From NCBI RefSeq assembly GCF_048403405.1, contig NZ_CP183129.1: 64,000 nt of DNA; one strand, given 5' to 3'. Position numbers and translations under genes: made by a program. Below the pieces are notes generated by a model. That model was not told where the DNA came from and made no database searches. It was given only the letters and a program-made list of their open reading frames with translations. Of the stretch, positions 24,552-25,486 are shown one piece after another; position 1 is the stretch's first letter; each line of letters opens with the position of its first letter. Origin of the DNA: Escherichia coli (GTDB lineage Bacteria; Pseudomonadota; Gammaproteobacteria; Enterobacterales; Enterobacteriaceae).

Positions 24552-24579
24552 GGCGGGAAATGCTCCCGCCTTATTTTTT
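24552..24579 (+). terminator. dksA rho-independent terminator (GGCGGGA-AATGC-TCCCGCC followed by TTATTTTTT)
   Basis: 7-bp GC stem plus 8-nt T-run read 30 nt after dksA stop; lies immediately upstream of or overlapping the gluQ start. Confidence 0.75.
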
Positions 24580-25486
24580 GTTCAAAGAGATGACAGACAC
24601 ACACTATATTGGCCGCTTTGCCCCCTCTCCTTCCGGCGAGCTTCATTTTGGCTCTCTGATTGCCGCGCTTGGCAGCTATTTACAGGCTCGCGCTAGGCAA
24701 GGTCGCTGGCTGGTACGCATTGAAGATATCGACCCGCCTCGTGAAGTTCCCGGTGCCGCAGAGACTATCCTGCGCCAGCTGGAACATTACGGCCTGCACT
24801 GGGACGGCGATGTTCTCTGGCAATCGCAACGTCACCACGCCTATCGCGAAGCACTCGCCTGGTTACATGAGCAAGGATTAAGTTATTACTGCACCTGCAC
24901 GCGTGCGCGTATTCAAAGCATTGGCGGTATTTACGACGGTCATTGCCGGGAATTACATCATGGACCAGACAACGCCGCAGTACGTATCCGCCAGCAGCAT
25001 CCGGTCACCCAGTTTACTGACCTGCTGCGAGGCATTATTCACGCCGACGAAAAACTGGCACGGGAAGATTTTATTATTCATCGCCGTGATGGTTTGTTTG
25101 CCTATAACCTGGCGGTGGTGGTGGATGATCACTTCCAGGGCGTGAGCGAAATTGTCCGGGGGGCAGATTTGATCGAACCGACAGTGCGGCAAATCTCGCT
25201 GTACCAGCTTTTTGGCTGGAAAGTGCCAGATTACATCCATTTACCGCTGGCGCTTAATCCACAAGGCGCTAAACTTTCCAAGCAGAATCATGCGCCTGCG
25301 TTGCCGAAAGGCGATCCACGCCCGGTGTTAATCGCGGCACTTCATTTTCTGGGTCAGCAGGTAGAAACACACTGGCAGGATTTCAGCGTCGAGCAAATCC
25401 TTCAGTCAGCCGTCAAAAACTGGCGGCTCACCGCAGTGCCTGAGTCGGCAATTGTAAATTCAACATTCTCAAATGCGTCATGCTGA
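24560..25486 (+). CDS. gluQ: Glutamyl-Q tRNA(Asp) synthetase
   Basis: 308-aa ORF with class-I synthetase HIGH-like motif ([14 protein letters not shown]) and KLSK; alternative ATG at 24590 (MTDTHYIG, 298 aa) is also possible. Confidence 0.85.

Follow-up and report, generated by a model that had tools for sequence, protein, structure and literature searches.

The dksA-gluQ junction of Escherichia coli: a Rho-independent terminator inside an operon, with an ATG in its hairpin loop

The window analysed here is a stretch of 64,000 nucleotides of Escherichia coli (contig NZ_CP183129.1 of assembly GCF_048403405.1), and all positions are counted from its first letter. The part under study is an E. 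coli region with the gene order thpR-sfsA-dksA-gluQ-pcnB, followed by folK. The 1.7-kb dksA-gluQ stretch (23900-25600) was found in 5424 of 5426 complete genomes, with 100% identity to several of them. On the plus strand, dksA (24068-24523, 151 amino acids) ends with a TAA codon at 24521-24523, according to the list of open reading frames and to the PGAP annotation transferred from an identical E. coli region. It is followed on the same strand by gluQ (also gluQRS or yadB), a coding sequence of 298 amino acids at 24590-25486. The open reading frame of gluQ is longer than this coding sequence: it extends from 24560 to 25486 (308 amino acids), and its first ATG (24560-24562) is in frame with the ATG at 24590-24592.

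Some features were also noted around the end of gluQ. For pcnB, the PGAP start is an ATT codon at 25546-25548, and the mechanical list of open reading frames starts the gene at a TTG at 25525. E. coli pcnB is known to use a non-canonical AUU start, which we take to be the ATT at 25546. A promoter-like sequence (TTCTCA-17-TATGAT, 25466-25494) lies within the last gluQ codons, just upstream of pcnB, and a run of seven T (25505-25511) follows the gluQ stop without any convincing stem.

Between dksA and gluQ, a terminator scan of positions 23000-27000 gave as its top-ranked site a hairpin at 24551-24571 on the plus strand. Its stem begins 28 nt past the dksA TAA, on the same strand as the gene. 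From direct reading of the sequence, the 5' arm (AGGCGGGA, 24551-24558) is A24551 followed by GGCGGGA (24552-24558), the loop (24559-24563) is AATGC, and the 3' arm (TCCCGCCT, 24564-24571) is TCCCGCC (24564-24570) followed by T24571. The stem thus comprises eight pairs, six of which are G-C, and closes a loop of 5 nt. The energy of the hairpin calculated with RNAfold is -14.5 kcal/mol, and its 87-nt context has a z-score of -2.8 relative to shuffled sequences. A U-rich tract (CTTATTTTTT, 24570-24579), in which eight T and a single A follow the core stem, comes next; the sequence that follows the 3' arm reads TATTTTTTG. An earlier note on this DNA had described an intrinsic terminator with an uninterrupted run of eight T. 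The terminator itself stands, with its eight pairs, its energy of -14.5 kcal/mol and its U-rich tail, but the tail TTATTTTTT (24571-24579) consists of eight T broken by one A. The same note had correctly placed the ATG at 24560 in the loop, in frame with the 308-codon reading frame, and the ATG at 24590 about 10 nt after the T-run: the latter lies 10 nt past the last T of the tract and 18 nt past the stem. As the minus strand carries no T-run after the stem, the terminator is unidirectional.

This hairpin is not a mere chance match. With a strict rule (seven perfect pairs, at least five of them G-C, a loop of 3-8 nt and at least 6 T out of 8), we obtained nine matches at five distinct sites in the 64-kb window, two of these sites matching in both orientations or in two registers; dinucleotide shuffles averaged 0.15 matches each. 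A GC-rich stem-loop, a 3' U-rich tract and a position shortly after a stop codon on the same strand, all characteristic of intrinsic terminators, are found together here. Both the minimum free energy and the centroid folds of positions 24524-24610 contain the terminator, together with a weak pairing between the U-tract and AAAGAGAUG (-3.9 kcal/mol). This second pairing was discarded, as its sequence is not conserved outside Escherichia.

To compare the junction across Enterobacteriaceae, species-representative genomes were scanned with the 298-aa protein using tblastn, and the best 80 loci of the family, with 76-96% protein identity, were considered; these best 80 loci did not include E. coli itself, E. 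fergusonii or S. enterica subsp. enterica. Adding the window gave 81 sequences, and covariation was assessed on the 60 distinct ones. The motif GGCGGG...CCCGCC was found 10-27 nt upstream of the gluQ ATG in 74 of the 81 sequences. Around this conserved stem, three parts have diverged, namely the stretch from the dksA stop to the hairpin, the loop, and the spacer before the gluQ ATG. The segment enclosed by the conserved core arms, which comprises the loop and the inner stem pairs, occurs as 28 different sequences. The six core G-C pairs show no variation among the 60 distinct sequences and therefore bring no evidence of covariation. By contrast, the seventh pair (A24558-T24564, alignment columns 13 and 20) is A-U in 56 sequences, G-C in four and unpaired in none. 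This compensatory change is clean, and concerns the Citrobacter amalonaticus/sedlakii group and one Enterobacter. The outer stem pairs switch among A-U, U-A and C-G. Overall, 86.8% of the cells are paired, vs. 49-58% when the partners are slid as a control. The pairing has therefore been kept during evolution, as is expected of an intrinsic terminator, although this evidence is modest since most of the pairs never vary.

The tail is more variable than the core stem. In the relatives, the 8 nt that follow CCCGCC contain 5.4 T on average (range 3-7). In Enterobacter, Lelliottia and Yokenella, only 3-4 T out of 8 follow the stem (the Enterobacter-type tail is TTGTTACCG) and the hairpin lies 10-12 nt from the AUG, the core stem being still invariant.

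Additional palindromes were observed in two groups of genomes. In three Citrobacter loci (L015, L016 and L020), REP-like GC-rich palindromes are inserted between dksA and the hairpin proximal to gluQ. In eight Kosakonia/Phytobacter loci (L028, L030, L035, L042, L049, L053, L072 and L075), a second strong hairpin is present, with energies of -16 to -24 kcal/mol. In both groups, the extra palindromes are inserted between dksA and the proximal hairpin, some 40-130 nt before the gluQ ATG, and the spacer is lengthened to 86-151 nt. Four of the latter loci (L028, L030, L035 and L075, i.e. Phytobacter and two Kosakonia or related loci) display CGGGGAAAATTTCCCG in place of the proximal hairpin.

Within E. 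coli, the 90-nt stretch that covers the junction (24521-24610) is nearly invariable: 1426 records are at least 99% identical to it and 3997 are between 95% and 99%. Among the matches listed in this second band, 17 records each differ by one base (98.9% identity). In K-12 and O157, the two genomes in which this base was checked, the 98.9% identity results from a single base, located outside the hairpin, in the codon for residue 5 of GluQRS (298-aa numbering; 24602-24604). This residue is His (CAC) in the window and Gln (CAG) in K-12, in O157 and in the published N-terminus of the Shigella flexneri protein, and this codon is the sole difference of K-12 and O157 from the window over the 90 nt.

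Where gluQ translation starts bears directly on the role of the hairpin, whose loop contains the first ATG of the reading frame. In the genomes annotated by PGAP, gluQRS starts at the position equivalent to 24590 and is 897 nt long. The tblastn matches at the 80 loci mostly begin at the methionine equivalent to 24590, homologues of the GluRS type align with the 308-aa reading frame only from residue 17-19, and the crystal structures (PDB 1NZJ and 4A91) correspond to the 298-aa form. Moreover, Edman sequencing of the S. flexneri protein gave TDTQYIGRFAP, which places the start at the second AUG and the length at 298 amino acids; this result was obtained on the main band after T7 over-expression and is compatible with a minor 308-aa form (PMC3542578). 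The start of gluQ is thus the ATG at 24590-24592. The AUG used has no obvious Shine-Dalgarno sequence (PMC3542578). Consistent with this, the energy of the duplex with the anti-Shine-Dalgarno sequence is only -0.9 kcal/mol before the ATG at 24590, vs. -6.3 kcal/mol before the ATG at 24560 and -9.2 kcal/mol for dksA. Other genera likewise appear by eye to lack a Shine-Dalgarno sequence before gluQ.

The ATG at 24560, for its part, is not conserved among orthologues. It is confined to Escherichia and absent from all the other genera compared (more than 70 species). Even within Escherichia, the loop reads AATAC in E. whittamii and ATTAC in the divergent “E. coli” AF16, neither of which contains an ATG, and in Escherichia sp. 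MOD1-EC7003 the T-run is one base shorter, so that the loop ATG opens a different frame that reaches a TAA after six codons. The hairpin without the methionine was also reported in E. fergusonii (PMC3542578), a remark that we checked indirectly through E. whittamii and AF16. As the whole 24521-24610 stretch is nearly identical among E. coli strains, conservation of the loop ATG within this species is uninformative. Nor is this ATG preceded by an accessible ribosome-binding site: the Shine-Dalgarno-like sequence AGGCGGGA forms the 5' side of the stem, and the 5-nt loop encloses the AUG. These sequence comparisons show that the loop ATG is an accident of one lineage, in a loop that varies freely, rather than a conserved start. 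Given this absence of conservation and the published N-terminus, the 308-aa reading frame is an annotation relic. In the K-12 MG1655 reference (NC_000913.3, 159186-160112), gluQ (b0144) is annotated from the loop ATG, with 927 nt and 308 amino acids, an annotation that disagrees both with the N-terminus determined for the protein and with the start given by PGAP in other E. coli genomes. This record probably accounts for a gluQ reading frame that seems to begin inside a hairpin. The overlap between the hairpin and the gluQ translation start proposed earlier is consequently abandoned, in view of the N-terminal sequence, the PGAP start at 24590 and the lineage-specific character of the loop ATG.

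The same dksA-gluQ-rs junction has been studied experimentally in S. flexneri (Caballero et al. 2012, BMC Microbiol 12:226; PMC3542578). The published coordinates map consistently to the window, +509 being 24521, +590 approximately 24602 and +1469 25481. In S. flexneri, dksA and gluQ-rs are co-transcribed, as determined by RT-PCR (PMC3542578). A lacZ fusion that begins within dksA and ends at the fifth gluQ codon, devoid of the dksA promoters (pVCDT), displayed only baseline activity, and no separate gluQ promoter was found in the S. flexneri fragment (PMC3542578). On the multicopy plasmids used for these functional tests, all carried out in S. flexneri, removal of the terminator region (pVCPD) raised the reporter about 10-fold above pVCPDT, and point mutations that disrupt the stem raised it more than 2-fold (PMC3542578). 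A search of the literature for Term-seq or 3'-end data at the dksA-gluQ terminator found none, and neither did a search for translation-initiation-site data or later work on the gluQ-rs junction.

Taken together, these data lead us to consider, with a probability of about 90%, that the hairpin is the Rho-independent terminator of dksA, located inside the dksA-gluQ operon and acting as a leaky barrier, and that the ATG in its loop is not a start. In the present analysis, we observed the structure, its conservation, its covariation and the non-conservation of the loop ATG. Co-transcription, the lack of any further promoter in the fragment assayed, the consequences of deleting or mutating the terminator and the N-terminus of the protein were established in S. 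flexneri (PMC3542578). Polymerases coming from the dksA promoters would mostly stop at the hairpin and the U-tract (24551-24579), giving an abundant monocistronic dksA mRNA, and a minority of them would read through and produce the only mRNA carrying gluQ. On this read-through mRNA, translation would begin at the AUG at 24590, 18 nt past the stem and devoid of a Shine-Dalgarno sequence. GluQRS would thus be kept low at two levels, transcription and translation. The same quantitative behaviour is to be expected in the E. coli strain studied here, and the missing Shine-Dalgarno sequence presumably lowers translation. That gluQ expression depends on read-through, which the earlier note had proposed alongside an internal promoter, is supported by the co-transcription, the baseline activity of the promoterless fusion and the effect of terminator removal in S. 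flexneri (PMC3542578). The same note had set against this dependence a separate promoter mapped downstream of the terminator, combined with translation from 24590 only; translation does start at 24590 only, and such a promoter was not found.

Two published results do not fit entirely with a terminator and its passive leakage. First, the stem mutations raise the reporter by little over 2-fold, vs. 10-fold for the deletion. Disrupting the stem thus reproduces the deletion only in part, and the rest of the increase may be due to something besides the hairpin. Second, the intergenic RT-PCR product increases 20-fold in stationary phase, against a 1.3-fold change for the amplicons of dksA and gluQ (PMC3542578, Figure 2B). 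These two values are ill-fitted to a simple model of unregulated read-through only. The 20-fold intergenic increase is also at odds with the paper's own conclusion that there is no other source of gluQ mRNA (PMC3542578).

The first alternative, which would add to the preferred reading rather than replace it, is that the hairpin belongs to a conditional device giving higher gluQ expression under stress or in the stationary phase. Such a device could be an attenuator, a site bound by a factor, or an operator that controls translation from the gluQ start, which lacks a Shine-Dalgarno sequence. The stationary-phase increase of the intergenic transcript would find an explanation here, although the 20-fold value comes from end-point RT-PCR (PMC3542578). 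The authors themselves leave room for a riboswitch-like circuit or a terminator-binding protein; they nevertheless found no riboswitch (PMC3542578), and our Rfam scan of positions 23800-25700 (E ≤ 1) returned as sole match a chance sR60 snoRNA inside dksA. The core stem shows not so much as a G-U variant in genera with entirely different flanks and loops. This invariance could reflect recognition of its sequence, but it is also expected for a short all-G-C stem under selection for terminator strength. In Enterobacter, Lelliottia and Yokenella, the U-tract is poor (3-4 T out of 8) and the hairpin, at a distance of only 10-12 nt from the AUG, falls inside the ribosome-binding zone. On the other hand, neither the minimum free energy nor the centroid fold of 24524-24610 contains an antiterminator pairing, the 28 nt that separate the hairpin from the dksA stop lack conservation from one genus to another, and this stop probably lies too far from the stem to let a ribosome that terminates there touch it. 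We therefore consider a regulated device of this kind unlikely, and slightly more doubtful still that the hairpin is also a sequence-specific regulatory site for conditional read-through or translational control of gluQ. If such a site existed, it would explain the reported 20-fold intergenic increase in stationary phase and would link the modification of tRNA(Asp) by GluQ to the stringent or osmotic stress response.

The second alternative is a promoter proper to gluQ, for example of the sigma-24 or sigma-70 type, downstream of the terminator or overlapping it, in which case read-through would not be the main source of gluQ mRNA. A constant gluQ amplicon together with a variable intergenic one (PMC3542578) would agree with such a promoter; the baseline activity of the fusion from dksA to the fifth gluQ codon argues against it (PMC3542578). 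A sigma-70-like sequence (TTCAAA-18-TATATT, 24581-24610) matches the consensus at 9 positions out of 12, and its -10 box falls past the 3' end (about 24602) of the published probe fragment, i.e. outside the tested DNA. However, four sigma-70-like matches were found in the region for 2.8 expected, which is the chance level, and transcripts from this site would start downstream of the AUG at 24590 and could not encode GluQRS; the candidate was dropped for these reasons. RegulonDB is said to list a sigma-24 site for gluQ-rs (PMC3542578). When we searched positions 24380-24625 for GGAACTT-N15-17-TCAAA, the best candidate reached 8 matches out of 12, and the TCAAA at 24582 reached 7 out of 12 with no usable -35 box at the proper spacing, so that this promoter was also rejected. 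The sequence past the hairpin is moreover not conserved between genera. A promoter of its own for gluQ is thus very improbable. As a separate observation, the promoter-like site at 24581-24610 overlaps the gluQ start, and a transcript initiated there could add to the “gluQ” RT-PCR signal.

Finally, the loop AUG at 24560 could be a genuine alternative start, giving a 308-aa isoform of GluQRS when the hairpin melts, in line with its being the first ATG of the frame, with its Shine-Dalgarno-like sequence (-6.3 kcal/mol), with the 927-nt annotation of NC_000913.3 and with its presence in nearly all E. coli; this is the least credible possibility and can hardly be retained, since the sequenced protein begins with TDTQY... 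(PMC3542578), the codon is lost in E. whittamii and AF16, out of frame in MOD1-EC7003 and absent from all the other genera, the Shine-Dalgarno-like sequence and the AUG are both held in the -14.5 kcal/mol hairpin, and the 10 additional residues belong neither to the conserved catalytic domain nor to the crystallised form.

The terminator between dksA and gluQ is therefore real, and has been known since 2012. Read as a leaky terminator within the operon, it explains how a single operon can provide abundant DksA and very little GluQRS. The 308-aa model of K-12 gluQ starts at an unused codon, which is of practical value for annotation and for the cloning of gluQ. Apart from the question of whether read-through is regulated, no new biology is involved.

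The arrangement can be compared with several known systems. With attenuators and riboswitches, it shares a terminator hairpin located just upstream of the coding sequence concerned; unlike them, the dksA-gluQ site shows no antiterminator in its minimum free energy and centroid folds, no aptamer-like conservation upstream, no leader peptide and no Rfam match. The leaky Rho-independent terminators of E. coli rpsU-dnaG and recA-recX offer another comparison: in each case, a strongly expressed gene precedes a weakly expressed one that is devoid of its own promoter and has a poor ribosome-binding site (PMC3542578), and read-through into recX is about 10% (cited in PMC3542578). The genes and sequences are nevertheless different, and the analogy is by description only. 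The closest counterpart is the S. flexneri junction, which differs from the window at residue 5 of GluQRS (Gln instead of His) and otherwise presents, judging from the description in the paper rather than from S. flexneri DNA, the same genes and the same hairpin, whose loop contains an AUG, followed 27 nt further on by a second AUG without a Shine-Dalgarno sequence (PMC3542578).
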